Assembly (NCBI GenBank): GCA_012719555.1
Contig: JAAYAE010000007.1
Location: 1-34,504, forward strand
Direction: 5' to 3'
DNA from: Acholeplasmataceae bacterium
GTDB lineage: Bacteria > Bacillota > Negativicutes > Acidaminococcales > Acidaminococcaceae
DNA: 34,504 nucleotides
A program made the position numbers and the translations under genes. Shown piece after piece: positions 3,778-34,504 of the stretch (within the stretch, counting starts at the first letter, position 1; every line of letters begins with the position of its first letter). The notes under the pieces were generated by a model that had not been told where the DNA came from, ran no database searches, and saw only the letters and a list, made by a program, of their open reading frames with translations.

Positions 3778-3948
3778 GAAAATATCCCCCTTAAGGAATT
3801 TTATTTTTACAATGCCATAGGGGAGGTCAGCTTCATGTTCCACCGACTATTCGTGCGAGTAACCTTGTTTCCTCTACTCCTAGTTGGAATCACATTCCAC
3901 GTCTCTCTCTGCGGGCACTATAAAGCAATATTAATAATTTACATGGTT

Positions 3949-12123: not shown

Positions 12124-12861
12124 TTACTCTTTATTTGTTTGTTCAAATAATTTATTGACAGCCTCTAAATCTTCCTTAGTATCGATACCAATACCTTGAA
12201 AATCACTAGTTAATACTTTTATTTTAAAACCATTTTCTAAAACACGCAATTGTTCCAAAGACTCTATTTGTTCCATAGGAGTTGGGGCCAAAGCTGCGTA
12301 TTGCAAAAGAAAATCTCTGCGATAAGCATAAATACCTACATGTTTATAAACCTTAAAATCCTCAGGTTTTTTACGCGGGTAAGGAATCAAACTGCGAGAA
12401 AAATAGAGGGCGTAATCATGAAAATCCGTTACTACCTTTACCGCATTAGGATTGTCATAATCCTCCGGTGCCATTAAGGTTTTCAGAGTTGCCATAGACA
12501 GCTGGGAGTCTTTGATAAACGCTTCCGCTAACAAATCAATAACCTGCGGCGTAATCATGGGCTCGTCCCCTTGAACATTAACTATAACATCAACATCAGG
12601 ATATTTTAAAGCAACTTCAGCTAAACGATCAGTACCGCTGGGATGTTCTGATGAAGTCATTATAACATTTCCACCGAACCCTTTTACCGTCTCAACAACT
12701 TTTTCATCATCTGTAGCCACCAGCACTTCTTGTGGCAACTTAGCTTGGCAAGCCCTAGTATAAACGTGCTGAATCATAGGCTTACCTGCAATTAAGGCCA
12801 AAGGTTTCCCCGGTAACCTTGTAGATGAAAAACGGGCTGGAATCACACACATAACTTTCAT
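12124..12861 (-). CDS. kdsB: CMP-Kdo synthetase KdsB
   Basis: N-terminus VIPARFSSTRLPGKPL, NVQGDEPMI and the size (245 aa) are typical of KdsB. Its ATG overlaps the upstream TAA (TAATG). Confidence 0.92.
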   Translation of the reverse strand: MKVMCVIPARFSSTRLPGKPLALIAGKPMIQHVYTRACQAKLPQEVLVATDDEKVVETVKGFGGNVIMTSSEHPSGTDRLAEVALKYPDVDVIVNVQGDEPMITPQVIDLLAEAFIKDSQLSMATLKTLMAPEDYDNPNAVKVVTDFHDYALYFSRSLIPYPRKKPEDFKVYKHVGIYAYRRDFLLQYAALAPTPMEQIESLEQLRVLENGFKIKVLTSDFQGIGIDTKEDLEAVNKLFEQTNKE

Positions 12862-15392
12862 TATCTTTTTATCTCCTTTTTGATGGCGTTATAAATTGCT
12901 TTTTCAAAGTCATCCTGACCATATGTAATTTGAATTTCCATATTTAAAACATAGAGAGGAACTTCTCTCTCAAAATAAATGAATTCTGTAGGAATCTTTA
13001 CCGCGTCTTTAGCCGTAGTGACCAAAGCTTTAACTTTTTTATTAATAGCTCTATCCATAATATATTGCATCTCAACCATACCATAATCATGGTGATCCGG
13101 ATAGCGTATTGCTTCTTCAATTTCCAAACCTTCGTTGGTCAGCGTCTGTTCAAAAGAAGAAGGATTCCCAATAGCAGAAAATACCATAACAGACTGTCCA
13201 TCAAGGTCTTCTAGAGGTAAAGCCTGAGTTTTGATGCCTTTGTACCAATCAGCAATTTCTACGTAATTACAAGGCCTATGCATACTCTCAATAATAGGCG
13301 CCTTATGATTATACTTATGCAGAGTATCGCACAAGGTGTCTCTGGAGATACTGGAACTTTGGTCACTTTTTGTCAAAAGGAATAAACCGGCACGATTTAA
13401 GTTTCTTAAGGGTTCACGCAAGGTTCCCCGCGGAAGCAAACTTCCATTGCCGAACATATTCAAGGTATCCACCAAAACTACATCTAAATCACGATATAGC
13501 TGCCAATGTTGGTAACCATCATCCATAATAATAACTTCAGCGCCTAATTTTTCTACAGCGAACTTGCCTGTAATAGCGCGTTCCTTACCAATAATAACCG
13601 GGATACCTGGTAAAGTTTTAGCCATTAAGTAAGCCTCATCACCTGCTTCATAGGCTGTCATAAAAATCTTTTTACCATCTGACACCACGCCAATCTCTTG
13701 CTCCCAATGAGAACGGTAACCACGATTCAAAATAACAACCCTGTACCCCATTTCTTGAATCATAACGGCAACTTTTTGAGCCGTGGGAGTTTTTCCCGTA
13801 CCACCAACTGTAATGTTACCAATACTGATAACGCAGCAATCTAATTTGGCACGTGATAAAATACCTTTTTCATAAAGATAGAGTTTTATTCTTACCCCTA
13901 TCTCATAAAGCACAGAAAAACCCCGTAAAGTTGCCAATACCAGCCAATCAATAAAATTATTATCTTGGCCATGAGACAACTGCATTAAATATTGAGTAAC
14001 TGCGTCACCGGGCCGCATACGCGGACTTACTTCATCATTTATATTTCTGGTATTGACTTTGTAATGAGCATTAACCATACTCTCAGTCGCCGTTATTTTT
14101 AACAACTCCTGTAAATACTCAATAGTTCGCACCGCAGCCCCGCGATTTTCATGAATAACCTGTAAAGAGGCCTTACCCATTCTGGCACGCAGGTCATCAT
14201 CTTTAAAAACTTCCAACAATACATCTGTCAGCTGCCCCGCATCTTCTATTTGCTTACAGGCACCAACTTTAGAAAGAAGTGCAAAAGAATCTTTAAAATT
14301 ATACATATTAGGTCCGACAATTATTGGTTTAGCATGAGCGGCAGGTTCCAATACATTGTGTCCGCCATGCTTAATTAATGTTCCACCCACAAAAACGGCG
14401 TCTCCCACAGCATAAATACGTCCCAATTCACCAATGGTATCAATAATGATAACAGGATATTGCACTCTCGGTGAAGGTTCTTTTAAAAGCTTAGAACGCA
14501 AGCCGGTTTCCAATCCGTATTGCTTTGCCAGCTTCACAATTTCCTCTGTTCTCCCAGGTTTACGTGGTGCTATAACTATTCGCGCTTTCGGGAATTCCTT
14601 ACGGATAACATTAAAGGAGTTAAACAAAGCGGCTTCTTCCGTAGGATGAGTACTGCCACCTACTAGCACGGGATAAGCATCGATAAGTCCCAATTCTTCT
14701 TTATAGCGCATTAAATCTTCAGGAGTAACTGCTGCGTAAGTCTGGTCAAATTTAGTGTTTCCTGTAACATATATCTTACGTTTTTCTGCCCCAAGATGGG
14801 CAATATAGGCCGCATCTATGGAAGACTGCATGCAAAATCTGGTAACAGACCCCAACATGTCAGATAAAATACTAAATAAATAGCGATATGATTTTACGGA
14901 TTTATCAGAAATTCTACCATTAACCATCATAACAGGTATCTTGCGTAATTTAATAGCACGTAGAAAGTTAGGCCACAGTTCAGTTTCTACAGGCATAAAA
15001 ACACGTGGCATAATTCTTTTTACAAAAGACTCTGAAATGAAAGGTAAGTCTATAGGGAAATAGATAATAGCATCGGCTTCCGGAATAATTTGATTGGCCA
15101 TATCATACCCGCCGGTGGTTACTGCTGATACTAGAATTTTCGCTTCGGGCATAGCTTTGCGTATTTCCTTTACCAAAGGACTAGTAGCTACAATTTCACC
15201 AACAGAGGCTCCATGAATCCAAATACAATCCTTGTGTGCTACTGCCGCTATTTCTTCATCGCTAATCCGTCCCATGGACTGTCTAAACCGTCTGGGGAAA
15301 CCCTTTTCTTTGAAGAAACGCCAACTAAAATATGGCAGTATAAAAATAACGAACACTATTAAAATTAAACAATTATAGACTATGTAATACAT
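12861..15392 (-). CDS. waaA-lpxK: bifunctional fusion: Kdo transferase WaaA/KdtA (about aa 1-432, nt 14097-15392) plus tetraacyldisaccharide 4'-kinase LpxK (about aa 466-843, nt 12864-13997)
   Basis: One uninterrupted 843-codon ORF. The N-terminal TM and IWIHGASVGE...GGSTHP...GGHNVLEP resemble WaaA. The LpxK part has the P-loop ISIGNITVGGTGKTP (nt 13787-13809) and DDGYQH. The linker of about 35 aa has no stop and no relic SD/start. Confidence 0.88.
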   Translation of the reverse strand: MYYIVYNCLILIVFVIFILPYFSWRFFKEKGFPRRFRQSMGRISDEEIAAVAHKDCIWIHGASVGEIVATSPLVKEIRKAMPEAKILVSAVTTGGYDMANQIIPEADAIIYFPIDLPFISESFVKRIMPRVFMPVETELWPNFLRAIKLRKIPVMMVNGRISDKSVKSYRYLFSILSDMLGSVTRFCMQSSIDAAYIAHLGAEKRKIYVTGNTKFDQTYAAVTPEDLMRYKEELGLIDAYPVLVGGSTHPTEEAALFNSFNVIRKEFPKARIVIAPRKPGRTEEIVKLAKQYGLETGLRSKLLKEPSPRVQYPVIIIDTIGELGRIYAVGDAVFVGGTLIKHGGHNVLEPAAHAKPIIVGPNMYNFKDSFALLSKVGACKQIEDAGQLTDVLLEVFKDDDLRARMGKASLQVIHENRGAAVRTIEYLQELLKITATESMVNAHYKVNTRNINDEVSPRMRPGDAVTQYLMQLSHGQDNNFIDWLVLATLRGFSVLYEIGVRIKLYLYEKGILSRAKLDCCVISIGNITVGGTGKTPTAQKVAVMIQEMGYRVVILNRGYRSHWEQEIGVVSDGKKIFMTAYEAGDEAYLMAKTLPGIPVIIGKERAITGKFAVEKLGAEVIIMDDGYQHWQLYRDLDVVLVDTLNMFGNGSLLPRGTLREPLRNLNRAGLFLLTKSDQSSSISRDTLCDTLHKYNHKAPIIESMHRPCNYVEIADWYKGIKTQALPLEDLDGQSVMVFSAIGNPSSFEQTLTNEGLEIEEAIRYPDHHDYGMVEMQYIMDRAINKKVKALVTTAKDAVKIPTEFIYFEREVPLYVLNMEIQITYGQDDFEKAIYNAIKKEIKR

Positions 15393-19210: not shown

Positions 19211-20035
19211 CTACTCCTTACTTCCACGAGCCGTCGCACGACAAATACCACGTTCTACATTGCGCAAGAACCGCATAAAATGTTCTACTTCTTCACAACT
19301 ATCAAGCTCTTGTTCCATAACACTTATGGCCTCTTGAAGAGTATATCTGCTGCGGTAAAGAATCTTAAAAGCCTGTTTCAATTCTTCACGGGCTTTTGGT
19401 GAAACACCTGCTCTGGAAAGTCCTACGCTGTTTAGTCCTGATACATGAGCAGGATTTCCTGCTACGATAACGTAAGGTGGTATATCTTGAGTAATCTTGC
19501 TCATGCCTCCGCACATACAATTGCGACCGATTTTTGTGAATTGGTGAACTGCAGTTAAACCGCCGATAACAGCCCGGTCCTCTACAATAACATGTCCCGC
19601 TAAAGTAGCTACATTACTCATAATAACATTATTACCTACTACACAATTATGTGCTACATGAGTATAAGCCATAAGTAACACATTATTTCCCACACGCGTC
19701 TCATTGCCTTCGCCTACGGCGCGGTGAATGGTTGCGCATTCATGCACAACTACACCATCACCTAAAATTGTGCTGGTTTCTTCTCCCTTATATTTCAAAT
19801 CCTGAGGTGCAGCACCAATACTTGCCCCCGGAAAGAACTCGCAATTCTTTCCAATGGTTGTATAACCATCAATAACCACATGTGGATGAATAATTGTGCC
19901 TTCCCCAATAGTTACATGTTCGCCTATAACCGCATAAGGTCCAACTTGTACATTTCTCCCTAAAATAGCCCCGGGATAAACGATAGCTGTCTCATGAACT
20001 TTACGTATTGGCATTACTGCTGAATCAAATCCCAT
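19211..20035 (-). CDS. lpxA: acyl-ACP:UDP-GlcNAc O-acyltransferase LpxA
   Basis: Left-handed beta-helix hexapeptide repeats from IHETAIVYPGA onward and the C-terminal helical domain (LKQAFKILYRS). GGGAG SD precedes ATG20035. Confidence 0.92.
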   Translation of the reverse strand: MGFDSAVMPIRKVHETAIVYPGAILGRNVQVGPYAVIGEHVTIGEGTIIHPHVVIDGYTTIGKNCEFFPGASIGAAPQDLKYKGEETSTILGDGVVVHECATIHRAVGEGNETRVGNNVLLMAYTHVAHNCVVGNNVIMSNVATLAGHVIVEDRAVIGGLTAVHQFTKIGRNCMCGGMSKITQDIPPYVIVAGNPAHVSGLNSVGLSRAGVSPKAREELKQAFKILYRSRYTLQEAISVMEQELDSCEEVEHFMRFLRNVERGICRATARGSKE

Positions 20036-20186
20036 AATTTTCTCACTCCCAATAACTATTTAAAAAAATATCGACTATATAGTCACGCTATCACAGAAAA
20101 ATTTGGCGTGCTAAAATCAAGGTAATTTTGCATATTTCAGCTCATTTACTCTCAAATACTCAATATTTCTACCAAAAACTGCTCTT

Positions 20187-21482
20187 TTATTCTTTAGGAT
20201 CCATAATGGCAAAAAAGAATTCCCCTTCACAAGCTAATTCTCCATCAACGGTACCTCTGCAATTAATTACTCCCATAGTCCCTCTAACCTTAGTAACGAT
20301 GGCTGTGGTGACCAATTGATCGCCGGGAACAACTTGTTTACGAAAACGAACTTTATCAATTTTACCAAAAACAGCAATTTTCCCTCTGTTTTCTTCAGGA
20401 TAAAGCATTGCTACTCCACCCACCTGCGCCATAGCTTCAATTAGCATAATACCGGGCATTATAGGATCTCCGGGGAAATGTCCCATAAATTGAGATTCAT
20501 TCATGGTGATATTTTTTATACCTACTGCTCTTTTCATGGGCTCTAACTCCAAGATGCGATCAACTAAAAGCATAGGATAACGATGTGGAAGAACTTTTTG
20601 AATTTCTCTAATGTCTAGTGTAATCATTTTTTTACTCCTTGCTTCAAATTTATCATTACGATAATCATCTATCTGTTTTGCTACATTAGCATTAAACGCA
20701 TGCCCTGTTTTCATAGCAATAACATGTGCCTGAATCGGCCCCAACAAATATAAATCACCTATAACATCCAAAATTTTGTGCCTAATAAGCTCATCTTTAA
20801 ACCTAGGCACAGACAAAATCTTGTCTGTATCGAAAACAACTACGTTTTCTGTGGTTCCACCCTTACCCATACCCATTTTGCGCATAGCATCCAATTCTTC
20901 TACAAAGGCTACTGTTCTAGCAGGGGCAATATCTTCCAACAATCTATCTTCTGTACACTCTAAGTCAAAAACTTGAGTTCCCAGCATGGGATGAGAATTT
21001 ATAGATGTAAATGTAATCCTATATCCATCATAAGGCAATACACATATGTAGCGATCCTTGTCATAAACTGCAAATGCTTTGTCAACCTTATAAACATTGC
21101 GTTTTTTGTCTTGTGTAACTCTTCCAACTTTCAATATTGCTTGTACAAAGGTATCAGCACTTCCATCAGCTACCGGAGGCTCAGGAGAAGACATCTCTAC
21201 AAAACAATTATCGATTCTTGTCATAGCTAAGGCCGCCATAACATGTTCTACAGTAAAAACTTCAGCGTTATTTTCGCTAAGTGTGGTTGCTTTCAACGTG
21301 GAAGTTATGTTAGCCGTAACAGCTCTGACATGTGGTTTATTAGGCAAATCCGTGCGGATAAAAACAATCCCCGTATCTGCAGGAGCCGGTACTAACTTAA
21401 GTTCTACCGGTTTACCTGAATGTAGTCCAATGCCATTACACGCTACTTCCGCAGCTAGTGTTTGTTGCTGGAAATTTTCCAT
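20187..21482 (-). CDS. lpxC-fabZ: bifunctional LpxC (UDP-3-O-acyl-GlcNAc deacetylase, aa 1 to about 280) / FabZ (3-hydroxyacyl-ACP dehydratase, aa 286-431, nt 20190-20627) fusion
   Basis: LpxC motifs GIGLHSG, TVEHVMAAL and HKILDVIGDLYLLG. FabZ motifs LPHRYPMLLVDRI and FMGHFPGDPIMPGIMLIEAMAQ. One continuous ORF of 431 codons. Confidence 0.92.
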   Translation of the reverse strand: MENFQQQTLAAEVACNGIGLHSGKPVELKLVPAPADTGIVFIRTDLPNKPHVRAVTANITSTLKATTLSENNAEVFTVEHVMAALAMTRIDNCFVEMSSPEPPVADGSADTFVQAILKVGRVTQDKKRNVYKVDKAFAVYDKDRYICVLPYDGYRITFTSINSHPMLGTQVFDLECTEDRLLEDIAPARTVAFVEELDAMRKMGMGKGGTTENVVVFDTDKILSVPRFKDELIRHKILDVIGDLYLLGPIQAHVIAMKTGHAFNANVAKQIDDYRNDKFEARSKKMITLDIREIQKVLPHRYPMLLVDRILELEPMKRAVGIKNITMNESQFMGHFPGDPIMPGIMLIEAMAQVGGVAMLYPEENRGKIAVFGKIDKVRFRKQVVPGDQLVTTAIVTKVRGTMGVINCRGTVDGELACEGEFFFAIMDPKE

Positions 21483-22406: not shown

Positions 22407-23018
22407 CTAAAAAGTACAGTTAATGCCGGCATAAAAATCATTGGAACGCATTCCTATTTCGGCCTGTACAAGCTTACCCACAGGAAGAGCTGCACCATAA
22501 TTAAAATGATGTCCATCATATTCCAGAGCTAAGCTTAAATTTAAAACATCACTATTAACCTTAAATTGTTTTTCCATAGCTATAAATCCATTTTGAAACC
22601 GTCCCGTACCTATACCTACATGTCCTCTAAATCCCCATGGACCTTCCTTAGTCGCAGCTACATAACCAGCACGGTCAAGTTTGTCTCCTATATCTTCTAT
22701 ACCAACAGCAACTGCCGGCGTTAACACTGATTCAGCTATAAGCTGATACTTGGCGCTAAGCATATTGAAATTGTTTTCATGCTTGGGGTTGAAACGGCTA
22801 TAAGACAATTCCAAACTAGGCAAAACTGTCGCATTTACGCCCAAAACATTACCGACTTCAGTCTGTTGCGCCATAACGGAAAACTCTCCTATATTTCGCA
22901 CATGTGCAGAAGGCACGTTAATAACACCGGAAATGGAACTTAATAACATTTTTGCTTCACAAGGCACTGTGAAGATCAAACATCCAACAAGTGACAAAGC
23001 TCCAAAAGCCTTTTTCAT
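22407..23018 (-). CDS. small secreted protein, probable outer-membrane beta-barrel with a YjbH-like N-terminal motif; function unknown
   Basis: Signal peptide ALSLVGCLIFTVPCEA. GVINVPSAHV resembles the G.I.(M/T)PSA motif of the YjbH family. Alternating hydrophobic pattern and C-terminal beta-signal FYAGINCTF. AAGGGG SD. Confidence 0.55.
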   Translation of the reverse strand: MKKAFGALSLVGCLIFTVPCEAKMLLSSISGVINVPSAHVRNIGEFSVMAQQTEVGNVLGVNATVLPSLELSYSRFNPKHENNFNMLSAKYQLIAESVLTPAVAVGIEDIGDKLDRAGYVAATKEGPWGFRGHVGIGTGRFQNGFIAMEKQFKVNSDVLNLSLALEYDGHHFNYGAALPVGKLVQAEIGMRSNDFYAGINCTF

Positions 23019-26145: not shown

Positions 26146-27423
26146 TTACAAATTTCCTACTATGCGAAGGTAGGTCTTATCTTTAGAATAAACATATTCT
26201 GTACTTAAAAATTCATGAATTCGATAACGAATACCAAACTCATTACCGCCAGGGCCACTAAAATGTTCTATTCTTATTTTCCATTTCGGAGAAAATTTGT
26301 ATTCAAATTTATAATTATTTTCCCCGGCTGAAATTCTTCTGGAATAACCTATAGAAATATTACCCAATTTACGCATATAGCCAGGGGAAAAATCCCACTC
26401 CGTGGGATTAACAATAACAGAAGCTTCCGCAAAAATTTCATCAGCCCCGGAAATATATTTACCAATATGAGCGACTCCCGAAATATTATGCCCATCTCTT
26501 CCAACATCGCCGTAACCTTCAAACCAAACTTTATAACGCGGTGAATTCAGTTGTGCCTCTACTATGGTGTCAGCTCCCGGAATAATGGTTAGCGTAGGTA
26601 CAATACCGTAAAGTTTAACCGCCTTTTGCTGCCTTAAAACCTTCAAAAGCCTTTCTCGAACGCTTTCCAGATTATCATTAATATACTGTATTGGTAAACC
26701 CCTAAGATTATTCACTTCCCTGCCGAAAATATTTTTGGTCTCTAAAAAAAGGATATTAGGCATGTTATCTGACATTATTTCCAAATGCACATTTTGCACT
26801 AATTTTCCCACAGGGTAAATTACAACTTGTACAACAGCCCTATCTTCCTGCCTGCTTAAATCAATAGCTGCTCTAAAATTAGGCAACGCAACAGCCACAT
26901 CTGCCCTAATCATCTGTCTTAAAACGCCGCCGGCCCAATCAGTTGCATCTACAGAAGCCCCAAGAACCGTGTTCCTTATTTGCGTTTGTAGCTGGGGCAT
27001 TTTTTTCAAAAGTTCTCCAGCCATATTATCATCAACATCAGAAAAACGAATATCTACCTGAACGTCCCCAATAACTTTACCCCAAGGTGACAAAGCTATA
27101 TTGACTTGCGTGGTCGTGCCTAAGACTAAACTTACTTTTTCCACTTGATAACCGGTTAACACCCTGTCGGTTACCTCTTGCAGCAAATTTGAATAATCTG
27201 ATTTTGACTTTTCAATTTGCTCAATTTCCCTGTTCATTAATAACTGTTCTGCAACTACCTGTATACTAGCAGTCATTCTCGCCAGCAAAGTATCACCGGC
27301 GTGATGACCTGCATCTTGAATCTTTACTTGTACCTGCTCAATCGGAGCAGCAAATACTATTGTTGGTAAGAACATGAGAACAAAGAGAAGCCCGAAAAGG
27401 CTATAGCAACTTTTTATCCTCAC
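26146..27423 (-). CDS. secreted protein of unknown function (425 aa) directly downstream of bamA; C-terminal segment resembles the TamB (DUF490) tail
   Basis: GTG start with GGGGGAGGGAAG SD. Signal peptide LLFVLMFLPTIVFA/AP. No family I can name. Tail IGYSRRISAGENNYKFEYKFSPKWKIRIEHFSGPGGNEFGIRYRIHEF aligns with the TamB end IGYSTSFDRQYHSVFAEYNITDKLNLNFSKDEKNRRWYGIQYQMSF. Confidence 0.6.
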   Translation of the reverse strand: MRIKSCYSLFGLLFVLMFLPTIVFAAPIEQVQVKIQDAGHHAGDTLLARMTASIQVVAEQLLMNREIEQIEKSKSDYSNLLQEVTDRVLTGYQVEKVSLVLGTTTQVNIALSPWGKVIGDVQVDIRFSDVDDNMAGELLKKMPQLQTQIRNTVLGASVDATDWAGGVLRQMIRADVAVALPNFRAAIDLSRQEDRAVVQVVIYPVGKLVQNVHLEIMSDNMPNILFLETKNIFGREVNNLRGLPIQYINDNLESVRERLLKVLRQQKAVKLYGIVPTLTIIPGADTIVEAQLNSPRYKVWFEGYGDVGRDGHNISGVAHIGKYISGADEIFAEASVIVNPTEWDFSPGYMRKLGNISIGYSRRISAGENNYKFEYKFSPKWKIRIEHFSGPGGNEFGIRYRIHEFLSTEYVYSKDKTYLRIVGNL

Positions 27424-27449: not shown

Positions 27450-29381
27450 TTAGAATTGTCCTCCAAAACTAAAGTGGAATCTTCCTCCATCGCCACCATT
27501 TAGCGGAATACCATAGTCTAAGCGCAATGGACCAAGCGGAGAATTAATACGTAAGCCAATACCGGCACTATACTTCATTAATCCCAATTCAAAATTATTT
27601 TCGCCATAATCTTTACTCCAAGCATAGCCCGCATCAGTAAATACCACTCCTTGTACTTTTTTAACTAAAGGAATTCTGTATTCTACACTGCCACGGAGCA
27701 TGCTGTTACCCTTAAATATATCATCGCGGTACCCACGAAGAGTATCACTGCCACCTACAGAAAATCTTTGACTTAGAGGCATATCCCCATTGGCAAAACC
27801 AACGCCTAAGTTCACTGCAATAACATTATTTACACCTTGACGATAGTAGTAACGGTAATCAGCACTATATTTTTGAAAACTAAAATCACCTCCAAAAGAA
27901 GCTACTTCCACAGAATAGTTATTTCGTTTACCTTCGTGTGGATCATAGATATTATCTCTACTATCCAATGTACGAGCAAAAATCACGCTGCGGGTAAGGC
28001 CAAAATTCTGAGCCTGTCTTTCAGCAATAACGTCAGCACTTTGCTGTGTGCCATCAAGATCGTATCCTTCAAAATACTGGTACTTATAGCCGCTAACTGG
28101 TTTAACATAGCTATCATCCCTATTTTTTAGTGTTACAGAATTTGTAATGAACTCATTATCTGTTACACGGCTAAAGGATATTTCTTCACCGCGTCTTTTC
28201 TTATAATAACGAGCAATTTCGTCACTATCACGATTATAATCAACATATTCATTAGTCATATTGTAAATTGTAATACCCATGGTAGTTTGTTTGTTGTCTA
28301 TCCAAGGACGCACATAGGATAACTCGTAGTTTTTGTTATAGACGTCATCGCCGCCAAACTCCCAGCGCAAATTAACCTTATCACCGGTGCCACGGAAATT
28401 CTTATCTCCAATAGAAATCATTCCCAAAATACCATCTGCATCACTGTAGCCGGCACCGATACCAAATGTTCCTGTACTCATTTCTGATACAGTAATTTCT
28501 ACAACCACTGTATTTTGTTGCTGGCCTGGATTTAATTTTATGTTAACATCTTCAAAATAACCTAGATTATAAATGCGTTGCATACTGCGACGGGCTGCCT
28601 TCGCGTTAAAAGGCTGTCCCTTCTTTAGCTTCATTTCTCTGGTAATAACATAATCTTTAGTCTTCGTATTGCCTTTAATTTTGAAATCTTCAACAACGCC
28701 TTCATTAATAAGTATGGCTAAATGACCATCAGGTAATAAACGAATATCGTTGACGCGAGCTAAAATATAGCCCTGCTTACTATATTCGCTTTCAATTCTG
28801 CGTGCCCCTTCATTAACTTTTTTAGTATTAAGCACTTGACCTTTAGGAATATCCACCATTTTTCTTATTTCGGCAGTAGAAATTTTAGTATTACCTTCTA
28901 CATCTAATTGTACAAAAGCTGGGTTTTCCATAATCGTGTAATCAATTTGGACACCTTCAGGTACCTCTCTGAAACTAGGCGTAATTTCATAAAATAATCC
29001 TGTTTCATATAGTGAGCGCATATCTGCCTCAAAGCCATCAGACGTAAATGTCGTCCCCGGCTTCATTTTAAGAACTTCTTTGATTTTCTCTTGATCCAAA
29101 TTATCAATACCAATTAAACTTACTTTGGCAACTAGGCTGCCCACATAAGGTGCCGCTTTAGCTGCATTATCTGCAGCTTTACTTTGCTCCTTTTGTAAGT
29201 TGGCCTCAGGCATCACGGATTTAGAAAGAGGTTCCACTTTCAGCTTTCCTTCAGCAGCTTCAACTTTCGGTTTGTGTTCTAACGGTTGGCTAACGGATAC
29301 CTCAGCGTACACAGGTGAGGTTAAAAGCAAGGATGTCAATATACCTGCGGCTAATGGCTGCCAAATTTTTCTTTTTTTCAT
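27450..29381 (-). CDS. bamA: BamA/Omp85 outer-membrane protein insertase, about 3 POTRA domains plus 16-strand barrel
   Basis: Signal peptide ...LLLTSPVYA. Lys/Glu/Ala-rich linker of about 60 aa. Three POTRA-like units begin at VAKVSLIGIDNL, FVQLDVEGNTKIS and VEDFKIKGNTKTKD. The barrel begins TGTFGIGAGYS, has the loop-6-like RGY in SDTLRGYRD, and ends in the beta-signal RFHFSFGGQF. GGGGG SD precedes ATG29381. Confidence 0.92.
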   Translation of the reverse strand: MKKRKIWQPLAAGILTSLLLTSPVYAEVSVSQPLEHKPKVEAAEGKLKVEPLSKSVMPEANLQKEQSKAADNAAKAAPYVGSLVAKVSLIGIDNLDQEKIKEVLKMKPGTTFTSDGFEADMRSLYETGLFYEITPSFREVPEGVQIDYTIMENPAFVQLDVEGNTKISTAEIRKMVDIPKGQVLNTKKVNEGARRIESEYSKQGYILARVNDIRLLPDGHLAILINEGVVEDFKIKGNTKTKDYVITREMKLKKGQPFNAKAARRSMQRIYNLGYFEDVNIKLNPGQQQNTVVVEITVSEMSTGTFGIGAGYSDADGILGMISIGDKNFRGTGDKVNLRWEFGGDDVYNKNYELSYVRPWIDNKQTTMGITIYNMTNEYVDYNRDSDEIARYYKKRRGEEISFSRVTDNEFITNSVTLKNRDDSYVKPVSGYKYQYFEGYDLDGTQQSADVIAERQAQNFGLTRSVIFARTLDSRDNIYDPHEGKRNNYSVEVASFGGDFSFQKYSADYRYYYRQGVNNVIAVNLGVGFANGDMPLSQRFSVGGSDTLRGYRDDIFKGNSMLRGSVEYRIPLVKKVQGVVFTDAGYAWSKDYGENNFELGLMKYSAGIGLRINSPLGPLRLDYGIPLNGGDGGRFHFSFGGQF

Positions 29382-29391
29382 GTTAAACCCC

Positions 29392-29940
29392 CTAATTTGA
29401 TTCACTTAATCTCTTGCGTGCTACGCGCACTAAATTGCGCATTTCCTGCGTTTCTGCCAACGGCGTATTCTGCGTTACTTTTGTCTTTGAAACATTTTGC
29501 TCTTCTGATAAAGATTCAGGTTCTTTTATTTTGTATTCTGCACCGCTGCCATTTTTAGGCATAGCGTCAACATTTGTAGCTACAACTTCCGCACTTTTAG
29601 GTGATATCAGAGGTTGTGGTTGTGTGATTTGTACGACATTTATCACAGGCTTTACTTGTGTGGCAGCAAGCTCGCTTTGGTTCATTGTGCTTTTAGCCCA
29701 AAACCAACTGCCCACTCCTACCAAAACAAGAATGCCGGCAATACCTATGGCCAAGGTTTGTCTTGCCCAAAAACTTTTAGATCCACGTTTTTCCCGCAAA
29801 AACTGCATCTGAGCTTCTGCTAACATTAAATCCAATTCTCCCCGTGCACCATTGTGAGCCTTAAAGCTTTCCTCAGCATTTTTTAAATTACTTTGCAAAG
29901 TTTTTATCTGGTCACAAATACCTTTTCTTTGCCTTACCAT
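29392..29940 (-). CDS. single-pass membrane protein (182 aa), possible anti-sigma/regulatory partner of the upstream sigma factor
   Basis: Helical N-terminus of about 60 aa, TM TLAIGIAGILVLVGVGSWFWA, then a low-complexity C-terminal region of about 100 aa. No recognisable domain and no ZAS motif. The stop is 10 nt before the bamA start. Confidence 0.55.
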   Translation of the reverse strand: MVRQRKGICDQIKTLQSNLKNAEESFKAHNGARGELDLMLAEAQMQFLREKRGSKSFWARQTLAIGIAGILVLVGVGSWFWAKSTMNQSELAATQVKPVINVVQITQPQPLISPKSAEVVATNVDAMPKNGSGAEYKIKEPESLSEEQNVSKTKVTQNTPLAETQEMRNLVRVARKRLSESN

Positions 29941-30083
29941 TATACCGTCACCGCCTTAAAAACTATACCGATATATAGTCCTAATTAGCACTTATATCTC
30001 CGCCTGCCATTAATGGTGATTTTAAGCTTATTGCTAAACTTTACGTATTCTATCTTCATTTTTCAGACCTTTATCACTAACAG

Positions 30084-30725
30084 TTATATTTTCTTCAAAT
30101 CTGCCATTAACCGTGACAACATACCTCGCACACGTCGCACACCTTTTTTTTGCAGCCGATAAACATGCCCGGTGGTCACATTAATTGCAGCTGCAATATC
30201 TATTGGTCGTTTATCTTCCAAATAAATGGCAGATAGTACTAGTTGTTCTTTATCAGGCAGCCTCTCAATAGCCGCTAAAACTCTTCCTGAAAGAAAATTT
30301 CGCTCCGCCTGCTCAGCAGGAGATGTCTCCTGTGAGATCAACATATCTGACCAAGAAATTCCACTGCCGGCAATGGCCTCACTATCTAAAGATAATGTGC
30401 CGCCACCATATTCTGAATTTAAATAATCTATCATCCTGCCCTTTATACGATGTAAAGCAAAAATACTGAAAGCAACTCCCTTGGTATAATCAAAGCGTTC
30501 CGCTGCTTCCAAAAGCCCAACAGTCCCTTCTTGAATTAGTTCCAATACCTGTTCTGAAGGAAGTTTAAATGATAAGGCCGTCTTAAAAACAAGGGGCTGG
30601 TAGGAACGTATAAGCAAATTATGTGCATCTGTATCTCCGTTTCCGCTCTTTTCCCAAAGAGAAATCTCTTCCTCGCGAGAGAGTAATTTTATTTTTCCCA
30701 ATTCTTCTAAATATTTGCTAAGCAT
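30084..30725 (-). CDS. sigma-70 family RNA polymerase sigma factor (213 aa, group-3-like, not ECF-like)
   Basis: Region 1.2/2: YLEELGKIKLLSREEEISLW, LIRSYQPLVFKTA, LIQEGTVGLLEAAERFDYTKGVAFSIFALHRIKG. Region 4 HTH: LPDKEQLVLSAIYLEDKRPIDIAAAINVTTGHVYRLQKKGVRRVR. GGAGG SD; it starts 21 nt after the tamB stop. Confidence 0.85.
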   Translation of the reverse strand: MLSKYLEELGKIKLLSREEEISLWEKSGNGDTDAHNLLIRSYQPLVFKTALSFKLPSEQVLELIQEGTVGLLEAAERFDYTKGVAFSIFALHRIKGRMIDYLNSEYGGGTLSLDSEAIAGSGISWSDMLISQETSPAEQAERNFLSGRVLAAIERLPDKEQLVLSAIYLEDKRPIDIAAAINVTTGHVYRLQKKGVRRVRGMLSRLMADLKKI

Positions 30726-30746
30726 ATCCTACCTCCTTTCTTTGCT

Positions 30747-33700
30747 TTAAAATGACATCTGATATTGAATTCCATACCATCTTCGATTTTTTTCATCTTT
30801 GGAAAAATTCAGATTGAGTTTATCCGTAATATTATACTCCGCGAACACACTGTGGTATTGTCTATCAAAACTAGTTGAATATCCTATCATGGCATTTTTC
30901 ATAAAATGCTTGCTGACTAATACATTATACTGGTTTCTGTCCTCATTAGTAAAGTTTTCTGCTTTCAAGGCATCAATATCAAACCCAATACTTGACCGTA
31001 CATTGCCATTATAAATTCTAAATTCGTCAAAAGCAAAGGTTTGTTTTACAAAATCTTCTATATCTCCCATAAATGTCATCTGCAACCCTGCGTCCAAAAG
31101 CCCTTGAACATTGGCATTGTTCACACTGCTGTTAACATTGTCATCCGTAGTTTTTAAGGTCAACATGCGTAACAATTCTGTCTGACTCTTTGCGGGATTA
31201 GAACTCAATGAAATATTCAAATCATCTACTGAGCCATCAGCTTTTGCGGTAATATTATAACGACTAAATCTACTGGTAGCCTCAAAGCTTACAGAAGGCA
31301 TTACACTTCCAGGTATTGGCCACGCCACTGAAGCGCGTTTAATGTTAAAAGGTGTTCTAATATAACTTATAGTTCCTTTGGTAGCATCTATACTGCCATC
31401 CACGTTTGTGAATTTTGTGCTTCCTGTAATATGAAGTCCCCCTGCAATCCATAAGTCATACATGTATTTATTGCGCAAATGAATGCTAGGTCCCAGCTCT
31501 ACCGTTACATCAAGACCTATATTAGAATCACTTTGTCCTATATCCGGAATTCCGGGAATATTCAGCAATACATCATCTAATCTTATTGTGGAAGTCAAGT
31601 GCGGCCTGTTACGTTTTTGTGTAACTTCTCCGTGGGCGTTAATTGTACCATTAAAATAAGTCGATACAACTTGAACCTTTTTAGCATCAAAATTTAATAA
31701 ATATGGTGTATTGGAAGCATCATTAAAAGCAAAGTTACCATTGGCTACAAAAAGCCCCTCTTTACCAATATTACTGGATAATTCTTTTAATGTTACTTGC
31801 TTACCGTTAAAAGCAACTTCCATTTTAAAATTGTCCAGCAAAGTAGACATTTCCTTAATTTTAATTGTTCCTTTATCAACAAACACAGAACCATTAATCC
31901 TAGGATCTTCCAAAGTACCAGTAATATCTACATTTCCCTTAGTATCTCCCACCGCCCAATCAATCCATTTAGTAAGAGAAGGCAAAATAGCCAAGTTAGC
32001 ATTATCCAATCTAACGCTTAAATCCATCTGGGCATCTGGGTTTCTACGATTATCTTTAGCTCTTAGCAAATCTTCTGGGAAAGTACCATAGGCACTGACT
32101 TTATAAACATCTTTTTCCAAAAGTAATTGTTCCAGCTTGAACATGTCATCCCGCAATGTCACCATACCATATAAATTATCAAAGGAAACGCCGGCTACCG
32201 TTCCCTGCGTTACCTGTAAAGAAACGTTGCCATTAGGATTATCCAGACTCCCGGTCAACTGTGCAGTAAAGTCCATTTGTCCGCCAAGCTCAACAGGTTT
32301 TGCCATAAAAGCCGTTAATATTGCGGCATTCACCTTATTGCAGCCAATTTCCAGATCAATTTTGCGCCCTTTAAAATCTACCTTACCTTGGGCAGCCATA
32401 AATCCCCCTGTTTCTTCTTCTGCTTTCATATTCATTATCTGCAAAAGTCCTCTTTTGTAGAATAAATCAAAAGCAATATCCTTAAAAGGAACACTGCGAA
32501 TCTTACTTTTGTTAACTTTGCCTGTTATGCTGATCCCACTGCCTTTGCCATCTTTATTGATAACAATTTTACCATCTAATAATCCTTCCATAGCAAATTC
32601 TTCTTTGGCCATCTTAAGTAATGATTTTACATTACCACCTGTAACATTTAACGTCCCTTGAAGTAATCCTTCCCCTAAATCCAACAGCAAGGATGCTTCA
32701 TAATCTCCACCGGCCTTTTGATGGAAGGTACCATTTAATTTATTTCGTGTTCCGCCGCTACTTTCCAAAAAGAAAGCAAGGCCTGTTAATTCTTCCCCAT
32801 TTATTTTAACAGAGTTTGACGTTAGCGCACCGGCAAACATGGGTAAGGCCCTAGTTCCCTTTACCCTACCGCTAAAATCCACCATGCCCTCAACATCCGC
32901 ATAGTTATTAATCTGCGGTATCCGTGCTAAATGTATTTGCCTTGCATCCATTACAAAATCCAAGTTGCCTGCAGCGTCCATGTTGCCATCCAAATCAATG
33001 TTGGTAGTCAAGGTTTTGATTTTGAACCCTTTAAGAGTCAAAACACCAGCATTGTAACTGTATTCACCGGCAACATCATCTACCAAAAATTTCTTACAGC
33101 TGCCATCCCAAGCGTGCATTTTTCCAACAATATTTAAATTATTAATCGCTCCGTAAACGTGGGCTTCATTGGTAAAATTACCTGTTATTTTTGCCGTAGG
33201 TGCAAAATAGTCGGAAATAGGATCTATGCGCACATGCTTTGTCGTAAGGTTAATATCTACTACTGTCTGATCTCCGCTAAAATCAATAAAACCATCAACC
33301 AAGTGCCTACCCTGCTCCATATTCAATTGCAATTGCTTTATCGTCAGCACATTGTCTTTAAAAGATAGAAAACCATTAGCTTCTTTAAATTTTTGTCCGA
33401 AAATTTCCCCTGCGCCTAAAGCTGCCATACCTTCAATATTAAATGAATGTACCGGACCATAGACAGTGAACTCCCCTGATAAAGTACCATAACCATCTTT
33501 ATTTGCTAGTTGCAAGAACGGACTAATAGGGAATTTTGAAATTCTTGCCTTAGCATCAATAATGCCATTTTTCACCGAACCTTTAGCCACCATAGCCCCA
33601 CCATCATCACTAAAGCCGCTAAAATTATTGATAATAACTGATTCTTTATTTATGTCTACATCTACATCTAACTTTTTAAATACGGTTCCACGCCATGTTA

Positions 33701-34504
33701 AGGTCAGCAAGTTGGCAAAAGTACTTAACTTTATGCTTTCGTTAGCCAAAGACCCCTCTAGAGCAATATTACCATCAGCAACAATACTCTCATTAGGTAA
33801 TTGTGCCAAAGGCGCTAAATCAACCTGTTTCATGTCTACATTAGCTAAAATTCTGCTTTTCTTTTGATCATATGTTGCGGCAATAGAAAGCTTGCCTCCT
33901 GAATACTGGGCAGTAGCATCGGAAATTATTATTTTATCATCTTGCATAGACAAGGGAACACTAACATTAGTCAAATTTTCTCCGGCTATTACCAAATCAG
34001 GAGCAAATATATTGCCTTTTACTAAAATTTTATCTTTCGTACCATTTAAAACCAAATTACCGCTAACAGCTCCTGCTACCGGAGAAGCAGGAATAATCTT
34101 AGATACATCAAATTTTTCCAGCTGAATTGCTAAATCCTCAGCAGCAGGATTTTCTCTATTGGTAAAATCTATATTACCATTTATCTCAGCTTTTTCACCT
34201 TTTACTGTAACAGAAAGTTTTTCAGCCGTAATAGCCATTTCATGGAAATTAATCTTGCCATCTAAGGTTACAGGAATCCTGTCATTACCATTAATAATTG
34301 TTCCTGAGGCTTGGGAAAATTTACCGCTGCCGGACATACCCACAGCACGACCATCGTTATGCCACAAAAGATTCATGTCTTTAATATCTCCTGACATATT
34401 GCTTACGGGAATGTAATGTTCAATAAAAGCAGTAAATTGGTCCAATCCAAAGGACTCGGTTTTAATCGCTAATGTTCCGGCTCTGTCTTTATTTATTTTA
34501 CCTA
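30747..34504 (-). CDS. tamB: TamB-like translocation and assembly module protein (AsmA-like/DUF490), 5' partial; the ORF remains open to the window edge
   Basis: More than 1250 aa of repetitive beta-rich sequence with no TM in the visible part. The DUF490-like C-terminal tail ends YGIQYQMSF. The frame upstream of the track start (TTG34445) reads on without a stop through 34504 (..GKINKDRAGTLAIKTESFG-LDQF..). Confidence 0.88.
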   Translation of the reverse strand, partial: GKINKDRAGTLAIKTESFGLDQFTAFIEHYIPVSNMSGDIKDMNLLWHNDGRAVGMSGSGKFSQASGTIINGNDRIPVTLDGKINFHEMAITAEKLSVTVKGEKAEINGNIDFTNRENPAAEDLAIQLEKFDVSKIIPASPVAGAVSGNLVLNGTKDKILVKGNIFAPDLVIAGENLTNVSVPLSMQDDKIIISDATAQYSGGKLSIAATYDQKKSRILANVDMKQVDLAPLAQLPNESIVADGNIALEGSLANESIKLSTFANLLTLTWRGTVFKKLDVDVDINKESVIINNFSGFSDDGGAMVAKGSVKNGIIDAKARISKFPISPFLQLANKDGYGTLSGEFTVYGPVHSFNIEGMAALGAGEIFGQKFKEANGFLSFKDNVLTIKQLQLNMEQGRHLVDGFIDFSGDQTVVDINLTTKHVRIDPISDYFAPTAKITGNFTNEAHVYGAINNLNIVGKMHAWDGSCKKFLVDDVAGEYSYNAGVLTLKGFKIKTLTTNIDLDGNMDAAGNLDFVMDARQIHLARIPQINNYADVEGMVDFSGRVKGTRALPMFAGALTSNSVKINGEELTGLAFFLESSGGTRNKLNGTFHQKAGGDYEASLLLDLGEGLLQGTLNVTGGNVKSLLKMAKEEFAMEGLLDGKIVINKDGKGSGISITGKVNKSKIRSVPFKDIAFDLFYKRGLLQIMNMKAEEETGGFMAAQGKVDFKGRKIDLEIGCNKVNAAILTAFMAKPVELGGQMDFTAQLTGSLDNPNGNVSLQVTQGTVAGVSFDNLYGMVTLRDDMFKLEQLLLEKDVYKVSAYGTFPEDLLRAKDNRRNPDAQMDLSVRLDNANLAILPSLTKWIDWAVGDTKGNVDITGTLEDPRINGSVFVDKGTIKIKEMSTLLDNFKMEVAFNGKQVTLKELSSNIGKEGLFVANGNFAFNDASNTPYLLNFDAKKVQVVSTYFNGTINAHGEVTQKRNRPHLTSTIRLDDVLLNIPGIPDIGQSDSNIGLDVTVELGPSIHLRNKYMYDLWIAGGLHITGSTKFTNVDGSIDATKGTISYIRTPFNIKRASVAWPIPGSVMPSVSFEATSRFSRYNITAKADGSVDDLNISLSSNPAKSQTELLRMLTLKTTDDNVNSSVNNANVQGLLDAGLQMTFMGDIEDFVKQTFAFDEFRIYNGNVRSSIGFDIDALKAENFTNEDRNQYNVLVSKHFMKNAMIGYSTSFDRQYHSVFAEYNITDKLNLNFSKDEKNRRWYGIQYQMSF

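Follow-up and report, generated by a model that had tools for sequence, protein, structure and literature searches.

In the outer membrane (OM) gene cluster of a member of the Negativicutes, a compact sigma factor and a single-pass membrane protein are encoded between tamB and bamA, and the two may together constitute a sigma/anti-sigma-like envelope switch which tunes the building of the OM. We give this reading about an even chance. The evidence comes from a 34 504-nucleotide stretch of DNA (contig JAAYAE010000007.1, hereafter the window) and from its comparison with related loci, in which the pair is found in the same place.

Organisation of the locus

The genes discussed here all lie on the minus strand, in the order tamB–sigma–sonB–bamA–sonA (Table 1). 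The tamB frame remains open up to the right edge of the window, such that the gene is incomplete here, the TamB proteins of relatives being of ca 1420–1440 aa. The junction between tamB and the sigma gene (median gap 18 nt over 81 loci) is too short to hold a promoter, and the sigma gene is therefore probably co-transcribed with tamB. At the other end, the bamA ATG (MKKRKIW, with SD AGGGGG) lies 10 nt past the sonB stop, and bamA is probably in one operon with sonB; the longest bamA ORF has a GTG start at 29405, which would overlap sonB. The spacer between the sigma gene and sonB has a median length of 162 nt over the 78 Negativicutes loci, in none of which is it shorter than 136 nt, and carries a conserved, promoter-like element. 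In view of this, the sigma gene (with tamB) and sonB–bamA are probably separate transcription units within the Negativicutes. The 143-nt spacer showed no terminator-like site, and an RNA element there was rejected, given the lack of any Rfam match in the window or in four further loci and a fold z-score of −0.43. The SonA equivalent has no Pfam match, and its gene is syntenic in all loci compared.

An earlier, sequence-only reading of this DNA had described a 213-aa sigma factor starting 21 nt after the tamB stop behind its own SD and, beyond a 143-nt spacer, a 182-aa membrane protein ending 10 nt before bamA, with all of which the ORFs, junctions and coordinates agree. Its further view, that the sigma gene is embedded in a tamB–bamA operon, holds in part, in that the gene is probably on the tamB transcript; the conserved spacer makes sonB–bamA probably a unit of its own.

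Table 1. Features of the window, listed in the direction of transcription
Feature	Position	Strand	Remarks
tamB, 3' part	30747..34504	-	Pfam TamB 9.9e-42; stop at 30747
tamB–sigma junction, 21 nt	30726..30746	-	carries SD AAAGGAGG
sigma-70 family protein, 213 aa	30084..30725	-	ATG 30725, stop 30084; Pfam r1_2, r2, r4
sigma–sonB spacer, 143 nt	29941..30083	-	conserved, putative regulatory region
GACTATATA, window copy of GAYTATAWA	29972..29980	-	31 nt upstream of sonB ATG
sonB positional equivalent, 182 aa, single-pass membrane protein	29392..29940	-	ATG 29940, SD GGCGGTGA
bamA	27450..29381	-	Omp85 and POTRA domains; TIGR03303 304.7 against a cut-off of 297
SonA equivalent by position and size, 425 aa	26146..27423	-	A. 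longum F7NM22 is of 426 aa
second GACTATATA, within perfect palindrome GACTATATAGTC	20076..20084	-	40 nt upstream of lpxA ATG
lpxA	19211..20035	-	Pfam; heads the run lpxA-lpxI-lpxB-msbA-kdtA/lpxK-kdsB-kdsA...

The sigma factor

Pfam matches to PF04542 (9e-16) and PF04545 (2e-7) place the protein in the sigma-70 family. Region 1.2 (aa 2–28; Sigma70_r1_2 at 24.5 against a cut-off of 22) is followed by sigma-2 (aa 32–106) and sigma-4 (aa 136–212), between which the AF2 model has a linker of 29 aa in the place of the sigma-3 domain, a domain found neither by Pfam (PF04539) nor in the model. The model itself is a confident one (pLDDT 92.8) with sigma-2 and sigma-4 complete, and a Foldseek search with it returns sigma factors at E 5e-9, the best matches being group 1–3 sigmas. 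Members of the family share 45–65% identity, and nine columns are invariant across 38 of them, concentrated in regions 2 and 4.2. Judged by the model and by these positions, the sigma factor looks intact.

As regards its classification, the generic TIGR02937 is the only NCBIfam model whose cut-off is passed. Matches from NCBIfam, PDB sequences and Foldseek all give FliA/WhiG and group 1–3 sigmas as nearest relatives, and for regions 2.4 and 4 the best alignments are with FliA/WhiG. Membership of FliA/WhiG proper is ruled out by a TIGR02479 score of 84.7, in two separate stretches, against a cut-off of 189.6, and by the missing sigma-3 domain; that of the sporulation and stress families (SigE/K, SigF/G/B, RpoH, RpoS) by scores below the family HMM cut-offs. 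Among the best 25 matches per table, none of the 38 members approaches a named-family cut-off. SigH is absent among the NCBIfam matches listed, and an approximate B. subtilis SigH query aligned with the protein over region 2 only (39 bits). The architecture fits the description of an ECF sigma as sigma-2 and sigma-4 without sigma-3; an ECF assignment is ruled out by the presence of region 1.2 and by best matches that are all group 1–3 sigmas. Some members are labelled ‘sporulation-specific sigma factor’ in IMG.

The domain and HMM analyses thus bear out what had been proposed of the protein beforehand: that it has regions 1.2, 2 and 4 (the strings LIQEG, FDYTKG and AFSIFA are all present), that it lacks most of region 3, and that by sequence it is not ECF-like. 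It also stands outside the named families, no flagellar, sporulation, heat-shock or stress cut-off being passed.

Conservation of the pair

The order tamB–sigma–membrane protein–bamA–sonA–skp–lpxD is kept in all of the ca 80 loci with enough flank, spanning Acidaminococcaceae, Sporomusaceae, Selenomonadaceae and some Veillonellaceae, so that the arrangement is not one of chance. The relatives were gathered by a genome scan built from an alignment of eight sequences, and the 78 sigma–SonB pairs correspond to an effective number of ca 30. Every sigma homologue with enough flank is adjoined by a SonB-like ORF, between tamB and bamA; conversely, searches begun from SonB homologues find the sigma gene directly upstream. 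In other words, the two are adjacent genes co-occurring across genomes, as is characteristic of the sigma/anti-sigma class. The pair is also kept, only 17–53 nt apart, in relatives of 31–37% identity from high-GC organisms (50–72% GC). One further protein of 31% identity (P0202) lies among unrelated genes and probably does not belong to the family. The proposal that the pair is syntenic between tamB and bamA is hence upheld, in the Negativicutes and beyond.

It is against this background that a quite different account of the sigma factor must be set, namely that it is a decayed or redundant flagellar or sporulation paralogue without any OM-specific role, its position being a historical accident. 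FliA/WhiG does give the best named-family scores, and the IMG label points the same way. Yet these scores fall far below the cut-offs, the sigma-3 domain is missing, identity and invariant columns have been kept, and synteny is strict at all loci with enough flank in at least four families. Moreover, the syntenic lineages include Phascolarctobacterium and Succiniclasticum, which are non-sporulating, non-motile gut genera. Decay of this kind is very improbable.

The converse case is that of Veillonella parvula, in which tamB (Vpar_0526) and bamA (Vpar_0527) are adjacent. According to PMC13018214, SonA and SonB are syntenic across the Negativicutes and both are missing in V. parvula and A. fermentans. 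Taken with the tamB–bamA adjacency, this loss amounts to a co-absence in V. parvula, which favours the switch.

The membrane protein, SonB

The membrane protein is the positional equivalent of SonB, lying directly upstream of bamA in the order sonB–bamA–sonA–skp1 and having a TM helix. Its positional match in Acetonema longum is F7NM24, and Sporomusaceae loci hold clear SonB homologues at the position of F7NM24. In PMC13018214, SonB was named in 2026 in A. longum and annotated as a putative OM lipoprotein with a predicted TM helix; SonB, BamA and SonA are described as co-expressed, up-regulated in germination and under a predicted common promoter, and the gene order is given as MlaD–TolC–two genes–SonB–BamA–SonA–Skp...YjbH. 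From the order of accessions, we infer that one TamB gene and one sigma gene (F7NM25/26) would fit there. PMC13018214 makes no mention of a sigma gene beside sonB, and none of the sigma factor was found in the searchable literature. The earlier supposition that the pair is uncharacterised is accordingly borne out for the sigma factor and corrected for its partner, which is SonB by position (PMC13018214).

SonB has one TM within aa ~55–95, with a hydrophobic stretch at aa ~60–84 and a K/R-rich N-terminal flank, from which, by the positive-inside rule, its topology looks to be N-in. The model consists of helices at residues 3–28 and 33–52, the TM helix, a disordered stretch and a helix at 161–181. 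The layout is thus one of a cytoplasmic helical hairpin (aa 3–52), a disordered linker (aa 95–159) and a conserved C-terminal helix (aa 161–181). Within SonB, conservation is greatest in the hairpin, whose mean pairwise identity is 0.48; that of the linker is 0.13, and the sigma factor itself reaches 0.52. A lipoprotein was considered and rejected, there being no lipobox or signal peptide, the first hydrophobic stretch beginning only at aa ~55, beyond a helical domain rich in charge, and Cys9 not being conserved. SonB here therefore looks to be an inner-membrane protein, contrary to its published annotation.

The protein belongs to no Pfam or NCBIfam family, a Pfam search over 30 members gave no consistent match at E ≤ 1, Foldseek found no matching fold, anti-sigma folds included, and every database name among the homologues is ‘hypothetical’. 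On these grounds a known anti-sigma, or indeed any known family or fold, was discarded, as was a zinc-binding or class I anti-sigma (ZAS, RskA or RseA-like). There is no HxxxCxxC motif, and the relatives do not keep the only Cys of the protein, at residue 9. The sequence-only reading had likewise reported a helical cytoplasmic N-terminus, one TM and no ZAS motif, each of which is confirmed.

Periplasm spanners of the TonB/TolA type have a TM helix, a long P/A-rich linker and a short C-terminal docking helix, to which the corresponding parts of SonB bear a resemblance. This likeness lends itself to an alternative, implied by PMC13018214, whereby SonB is a structural or accessory part of BAM or TAM, an envelope-spanning tether or chaperone-like protein which does not bind the sigma factor, the latter being controlled otherwise and merely sharing the cluster. 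The 10-nt distance of sonB from bamA, their reported co-expression, the joint loss of SonA and SonB in V. parvula and A. fermentans (PMC13018214) and the absence of homology to anti-sigma domains are all in keeping with it. What it leaves unexplained is why the cytoplasmic hairpin should be the best conserved part, and why a sigma gene should lie immediately upstream in all sampled lineages, in the distant ones at only 17–53 nt. Further, an anti-BamA co-IP in A. longum gave no accessory partners, to judge from a section heading of PMC13018214. We hold this alternative to be unlikely.

The GAYTATAWA element

A motif search of the intergenic gaps of the cluster returned GAYTATAWA at two operon heads, those of sonB and lpxA. 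At sonB the element lies ca 30 nt upstream of the gene and is conserved across the class; in the window, GACTATATA at this site is a candidate −10-type promoter element. Exact copies on the plus strand of 1.4 Mb of loci fall within the sigma–sonB spacer in 48 of 84 cases, the others being mostly coding ‘DYK’ codons. At 9 bits or more it is present in 31 of the 47 non-redundant loci, as compared with 0–2 loci each upstream of nine other genes; upstream of tolC there are isolated copies only (L052, L065). The lpxA copy sits in a gap of 151 nt, one of the two large intergenic gaps in the cluster, and is the top PWM match in the whole window (17.8 bits), having been left out of the training set. 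Four other loci (L042/L049, L048, L044) have the element at the same position before lpxA. The lpxA run is a candidate second target operon.

The G and A before TATA are 94–98% conserved, and an A stands where T-7 would fall, features atypical of SigA promoters by which the element differs from a housekeeping −10. Upstream of it no clear −35 element is definable across loci; the −35-like signal nowhere exceeds 0.74 bit per position, and there is only a weak A-tract 16–20 nt upstream. The sigma-28 promoter consensus is TAAA-N15-GCCGATAA, and the layout here (A-tract, N15–16, G-x-Y-x-ATAW) resembles it. Scanned for generic sigma-70 promoters, the region gave matches no commoner than in shuffled sequence, and none in the spacer.

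An AT-rich, TATA-like element could possibly also be a housekeeping promoter or the palindromic operator of another factor. The pair would in that case be a true sigma/anti-sigma pair with its regulon elsewhere in the genome, which is possible but doubtful. Canonical −35/−10 pairs do overlap the element in some lineages, as in Succiniclasticum, with its near-perfect TTGCCA-N17-TATAAT; there are palindromic versions, GACTATATAGTC (12-bp, the lpxA copy) and GATTATATATAATC, and in Sporomusaceae an adjacent palindrome, GACCAGAATCTGGCC; and in many lineages a further TATA box, specific to the lineage, follows 10–13 nt downstream. Set against these are the conserved G/A and the A at T-7, the absence of the element in front of those other genes of the cluster that were tested, and a sigma-28-like layout in agreement with the closest relatives of the sigma factor.

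A proposed envelope switch

Under the preferred reading, that of a switch, the pair would be a signalling system dedicated to the envelope, one that has belonged to the OM gene cluster of diderm Firmicutes since ancestral times. The sigma factor, compact, FliA/WhiG-like and devoid of sigma-3, would be produced from the tolC/tamB transcript and be kept inactive at the membrane, in anti-sigma fashion, by the two-helix hairpin (~50 aa) of SonB. The disordered, P/A/Q-rich linker of SonB (~70–100 aa) would cross the periplasm and end in the conserved amphipathic C-terminal helix, such that the tail could read the state of OM assembly from the POTRA domains of BamA/SonA, from TamB or from unassembled cargo. 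Loss of this contact, or cleavage of the tail, would free the sigma factor to transcribe from GAYTATAWA promoters before sonB–bamA–sonA–skp and lpxA–lpxI–lpxB–msbA–kdtA. OMP insertion and lipid A/LPS synthesis would then rise together, and newly made SonB would provide negative feedback.

In favour of such a switch are the co-occurrence of the two genes, the predicted N-in topology, the conserved hairpin and the seemingly intact sigma factor; the spacer-specific element with its second copy at lpxA; and an element unlike the housekeeping −10, of sigma-28-like layout, alongside a sigma factor with FliA/WhiG-like regions 2.4 and 4. Known anti-sigmas acting on FliA/WhiG-type or other group-3 sigmas are for the most part soluble proteins, which counts against it, as does the lack in SonB of any anti-sigma family, fold or zinc motif; the hairpin might just as well serve for dimerisation or as a scaffold. 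The variant GACTGTGTA at the element site of a close relative (L005) and the weak −35-like signal also tell against it. Moreover bamA is essential, and the sigma factor would have to be essential too were bamA to depend solely on it. The co-expression of SonB, BamA and SonA in A. longum and their induction in germination, as given in PMC13018214, favour the switch.

A more far-reaching version is that a new class of sigma factor (FliA/WhiG-like in sigma-2 and sigma-4, with region 1.2 and without sigma-3) and SonB, as an anti-sigma which spans the envelope and has a fold of a new class, would form an ancestral master regulator of OM biogenesis in diderm Firmicutes, co-driving the bamA/sonA/skp and lipid A operons from GAYTATAWA and sensing BAM/TamB through the C-terminal helix of SonB. 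It would be a non-ECF counterpart of sigma-E/RseA, of independent or earlier origin. This version is tentative and, on balance, rather improbable.

Significance

To our knowledge, nothing is known of the regulation of OM assembly in diderm Firmicutes, which, so far as we are aware, are without the Bam lipoproteins, Lol, RseA and RpoE-type systems of Proteobacteria. A pair fixed between tamB and bamA in the sampled sigma-carrying lineages, deep-branching high-GC organisms among them, would be a first handle on such control; that it acts as a switch is about as likely as not, its binding and regulon being what we infer from sequence. V. parvula, the only genetically tractable diderm Firmicutes model that we know of, is without the module, which may explain why the latter was overlooked and would make this organism a clean heterologous host. 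The annotation of SonB is also corrected, from the published OM lipoprotein to what by its sequence appears to be an N-in inner-membrane protein. Finally, the pair bears on scenarios of OM loss and on OM remodelling during spore germination, in which SonB is induced (PMC13018214).

Comparison with known systems

SonB and SonA here share with those of A. longum their position, sizes and, for SonB, a predicted TM helix; they differ in that PMC13018214 gives SonB as a putative OM lipoprotein, whereas the present protein lacks both lipobox and signal peptide, is predicted N-in and has a conserved cytoplasmic domain.

The proposed arrangement of an alternative sigma factor with a single-pass, N-in inner-membrane partner is that of RpoE/RseA. 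RpoE (sigma-E) is held by the anti-sigma RseA, which crosses the inner membrane once, with its N-terminus inside, and through its periplasmic part signals stress in OMP/LPS assembly; the RpoE regulon includes bamA, skp and LPS genes. However, RpoE is an ECF sigma, unlike the FliA/WhiG-like factor here with its region 1.2; the anti-sigma domain of RseA has four helices, where SonB has only a two-helix hairpin and no RseA homology; and rpoE–rseABC lies away from bamA, whereas the present pair lies between tamB and bamA.

By sequence profile the closest systems are FliA (sigma-28)/FlgM and WhiG/RsiG. RsiG sequesters WhiG by means of an antiparallel helical hairpin, a role comparable to that proposed for the N-terminus of SonB, and the layout of the element resembles the sigma-28 consensus. 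In contrast to the factor here, which lacks sigma-3 and misses the family cut-off, FliA and WhiG both have sigma-3; SonB, with its membrane anchor and periplasmic tail, is unlike the soluble FlgM and RsiG; and there are no flagellar or developmental genes around the sigma gene here.

Lastly, CnrY-type class-II anti-sigmas, FecR and Bacteroides Dma combine a cytoplasmic helical peptide, a TM and a periplasm-crossing part, and so couple OM events to a cytoplasmic sigma, in all cases an ECF sigma; the work on Dma is cited in PMC12045153. SonB has no sequence similarity to them, its partner is not ECF-like, and its C-terminus is a short helix, not a folded sensor or barrel domain; what it has in common with them is the layout itself, of small cytoplasmic helices, a TM and a part which crosses the periplasm.

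Locus anatomy and gene content

Re-reading of the open frames on the minus strand gives the same order, sizes and junctions for tamB, sigma, the small membrane protein and bamA as the sequence-only reading had reported (see table). The remainder of the window is a classic diderm-Firmicute OM/LPS cluster, in which bamA is followed by a 425-aa SonA-like gene, three skp genes, lpxD, yjbH, lpxL, lpxC-fabZ and lpxA, then by lpxI, lpxB, msbA, kdtA-lpxK, kdsB, kdsA, kdsD, kdsC and lpxL2, and ends with lptC, lptA, lptB and lptF/G; the source organism is placed in the Acidaminococcaceae, near Phascolarctobacterium. Gene for gene, the window matches the Acetonema longum cluster, which runs from MlaD (F7NM28), TolC (F7NM27) and two unnamed accessions through SonB (F7NM24), BamA (F7NM23) and SonA (F7NM22) to YjbH (F7NM17) (PMC13018214).

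Features of the window on the minus strand
Feature	Position	Length	Strand	Remark
tamB	30747 to window edge		-	reading frame still open at edge
tamB-sigma junction		21 nt	-	contains AAAGGAGG
sigma ORF	30084-30725	213 aa	-	
sigma-sonB spacer		143 nt	-	
GAYTATAWA copy, sonB	29972-29980		-	coding strand
sonB ORF	29392-29940	182 aa	-	stop 10 nt before bamA ATG
bamA ATG	29381		-	
SonA equivalent	26146-27423	425 aa	-	by position and size; directly after bamA
lpxC-fabZ fusion	20187-21482	431 aa	-	one ORF
GAYTATAWA copy, lpxA	20076-20084		-	coding strand; 40 nt upstream of lpxA, in the other large intergenic gap of the cluster
12-bp palindrome	20073-20084			GACTATATAGTC
kdtA-lpxK fusion	12861-15392	843 aa	-	one ORF
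DUF3084 and YjbH-domain proteins (jointly)	4676-5566 and 22407-23018	203 aa (YjbH)	-	

The SonA equivalent has no Pfam or NCBIfam match; in A. longum, SonA is described as having three POTRA domains and a 10-stranded barrel (PMC13018214). It is kept in all Negativicutes loci; the distant locus L085 lacks it and has skp directly after bamA. Two LPS-pathway gene fusions are present in the window, of kdtA (Kdo transferase) with lpxK and of lpxC with fabZ. Two cluster members are uncharacterised, a DUF3084 coiled-coil protein after lptF/G and a YjbH-domain protein after lpxD, the A. longum homologue of the latter being listed as a 12-stranded OMP (PMC13018214).

A sigma factor family lacking region 3

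Pfam matches regions 1.2, 2 and 4 of sigma and finds no match for region 3, and the confident AlphaFold model (pLDDT 92.8) agrees, with region 1.2 helices, complete sigma-2 and sigma-4 domains and, where sigma-3 would lie, a linker of 29 residues; the architecture proposed from the sequence is thus borne out. The structural neighbours of the model are sigma-S, SigA, SigB, SigD, sigma-32 and SigH, with no ECF sigma among them. The family profile, searched against solved structures, best matches a 278-aa sigma (6pfv/6pfj, which we take to be WhiG), then C. difficile SigA and FliA. Moreover, region 2.4 (HRIKGRMIDYL) is closer to FliA (QRIRGAMLDEL) than to the WW-containing housekeeping type. In other words, sigma is ECF-like in size and domain count, yet group-3 and FliA/WhiG-like in sequence, such that the earlier description of it as not ECF-like holds for sequence and fold.

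Among the best NCBIfam matches listed for the window protein and for each of the 38 family members examined, only the generic sigma-70 superfamily model exceeds its cut-off. Assignment to FliA/WhiG was rejected at 84.7 bits against a cut-off of 189.6, and assignments to SigB/F/G, SigE/K, RpoH, RpoS or RpoD scored far under theirs in the window protein and the 38 members; sigma thus reaches no named sporulation or flagellar family. It constitutes a separate family, whose full-length members have ca 200-220 aa. When 50%-identity cluster representatives were searched exhaustively, 36 clusters scored <1e-30, weaker scores being generic sigma matches.

The membrane protein SonB

By position and size, the 182-aa protein is A. 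longum SonB; it is already named in the literature, but not as an inner-membrane or sigma-linked protein. PMC13018214 calls SonB an OM lipoprotein and mentions no sigma factor. The sequence has no signal peptide or lipobox and its lone Cys is not conserved, such that a lipoprotein is not supported. SonB belongs to no Pfam or NCBIfam family, and its database names are all 'hypothetical'.

Alignment of ca 80 positional homologues reveals a conserved N-terminus (hIr.Ak.WL..AE.SF....RGEL.LmLAeAEl), predicted from the charge distribution to lie inside the cell, followed by a single TM segment, a P/A/Q-rich linker that is not conserved and a conserved C-terminal helix of ca 15 aa (em..LvR.AgksLrgq). 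Mean pairwise identities are 0.48, 0.13 and 0.36 for N-terminal domain, linker and helix, and 0.52 for sigma in the same genomes. The model contains a helical hairpin (3-28 and 33-52), the TM helix, disorder at 95-159 and a terminal helix (161-181), and no structural neighbour of it was found.

Synteny and distribution

Scanning GTDB with one genome for each species returned 492 relatives. The best 80 of these belong to Acidaminococcaceae (Phascolarctobacterium, Succiniclasticum, Avacidaminococcus), Sporomusaceae (Sporomusa, Pelosinus, Dendrosporobacter, Anaeroarcus), Selenomonadaceae (Selenomonas, Mitsuokella, Anaerovibrio), and Megasphaera and other Veillonellaceae MAGs. The order tamB-sigma-small TM protein-bamA-sonA-skp-lpxD is held in every locus with enough flank, confirming synteny across Negativicutes, with median gaps of 18 nt from tamB to sigma, 162 nt (minimum 136 nt) from sigma to sonB and 21 nt from sonB to bamA. 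Distant members (31-37% identity, from organisms of 50-72% GC, one labelled candidate division GAL15) retain tamB-sigma-small TM protein-bamA, with a sigma-TM protein gap of just 17-53 nt. In V. parvula, tamB and bamA are consecutive locus tags and the site therefore lacks both genes. Against this pattern of retention, it is very improbable that sigma is a relic paralogue. The position of SonB between tamB and bamA would also suit a BAM/TAM accessory protein unrelated to sigma; searches starting from the TM protein, in turn, lead to a sigma directly upstream, and we consider such a role unlikely.

Loci L087 and L090 carry a distant, compact variant of the module (ca 50% GC in L087), with a much shorter TamB (948 aa in L087), a sigma-SonB gap of ca 50 nt, SonB overlapping or abutting bamA, and lpxD-lpxC-fabZ-lpxA straight after skp. 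The diderm-Firmicute OM cluster also occurs on contigs of MAGs named 'Acholeplasmataceae bacterium' (L008, JAAYVM010000216.1; L014, JAAYIB010000013.1) and 'Bacteroidota bacterium' (L088, GCA_050260415.1, where a SpoIVB-type Peptidase_S55 adjoins tamB); these contigs are probably mis-binned or mislabelled.

A conserved element upstream of sonB and lpxA

Only one block of the sigma-sonB spacer is conserved class-wide, GAYTATAWA; most loci have it 26-45 nt before the sonB start. The loci (1.4 Mb) contain 84 exact plus-strand matches, of which 48 fall in this spacer and most of the others are 'DYK' codons. Of 47 non-redundant loci, 31 have a match of at least 9 bits upstream of sonB, against 0-2 upstream of mlaF, mlaD, tolC, tamB, sigma, bamA, sonA, skp1 or lpxD. 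The coding strand of the window holds two copies, at sonB and lpxA, which are the top scores in the whole window (17.8 bits at lpxA and 17.3 at sonB; next best 12.7) of a position weight matrix trained on relatives' sonB sites, the lpxA site being outside the training set. All four other loci reaching that far have the lpxA-upstream copy. In several lineages, spacers read by eye have terminator-like hairpins directly after sigma, so that in these lineages a separate promoter is required for sonB-bamA.

The G and A before TATA are 94-98% conserved, with a weak A-tract 16-20 nt upstream. This differs from a standard SigA -10. Sigma-28 promoters follow the layout TAAA-N15-GCCGATAA, and the similar layout here, although in keeping with sigma's nearest relatives, is no more than suggestive. 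Caution is called for, as the core resembles a TATA box and in some lineages a canonical -35/-10 pair is superimposed on it; some copies are palindromic, that of L005 is degenerate, and in Sporomusaceae a palindrome, GACCAGAATCTGGCC, lies next to the element. That the pair is real and GAYTATAWA belongs to SigA or another regulator, a reading which partly overlaps the switch model below, is possible if doubtful.

Several further spacer features were observed. The lpxA-upstream copy lies in a perfect 12-bp palindrome, which recurs upstream of tolC in L065 (ca position 3782), and Succiniclasticum sonB sites have a 14-bp palindrome, GATTATATATAATC. Sporomusaceae spacers (L053, L058-L061, L063-L066, L068, L070, L073, L075, L079, L083) conserve a near-palindrome, GACCAGAATCTGGCC, between a T-rich region and the box, ca 12-26 nt upstream of the latter, which resembles the operator of a dimeric regulator and is absent from the window's clade. 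Sporomusa spacers of 320-420 nt (L053, L056, L062, L063, L083) share an insertion in the first ca 200 nt after the sigma stop, beginning GGGAAACTGGCGATAAACGCCCA and ending TCGCCAGTTTCC, so that its ends are inverted over a long range; Rfam yields no match to it, and it could be a MITE-like element or a structured RNA.

A putative envelope switch and its relation to known systems

The most economical reading, to which we give about an even chance, is a sigma/anti-sigma-like envelope switch. The analysis itself establishes the anatomy, family assignment, synteny, topology and cis-element. Sigma would be made together with tamB and, as we infer, be bound and sequestered by SonB through its cytoplasmic hairpin, and the long tail and terminal helix of SonB would sample the OM assembly machinery for a presumed periplasmic signal. 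Freed sigma, if its promoter specificity is for the GAYTATAWA sites, would drive both the lpxA operon and sonB-bamA-sonA-skp, SonB providing feedback. The literature searched does not mention sigma. The pair would be a sigma regulator of envelope biogenesis that is anchored in the membrane, combining a sigma of a new subfamily with a partner without known relatives. By sequence, sigma is nearest to FliA/WhiG, but falls outside that family. Functionally, the nearest system is sigma-E/RseA, which is ECF-based, unlike the group-3-like sigma here, is unlinked to bamA and is not homologous to the sigma/SonB pair.
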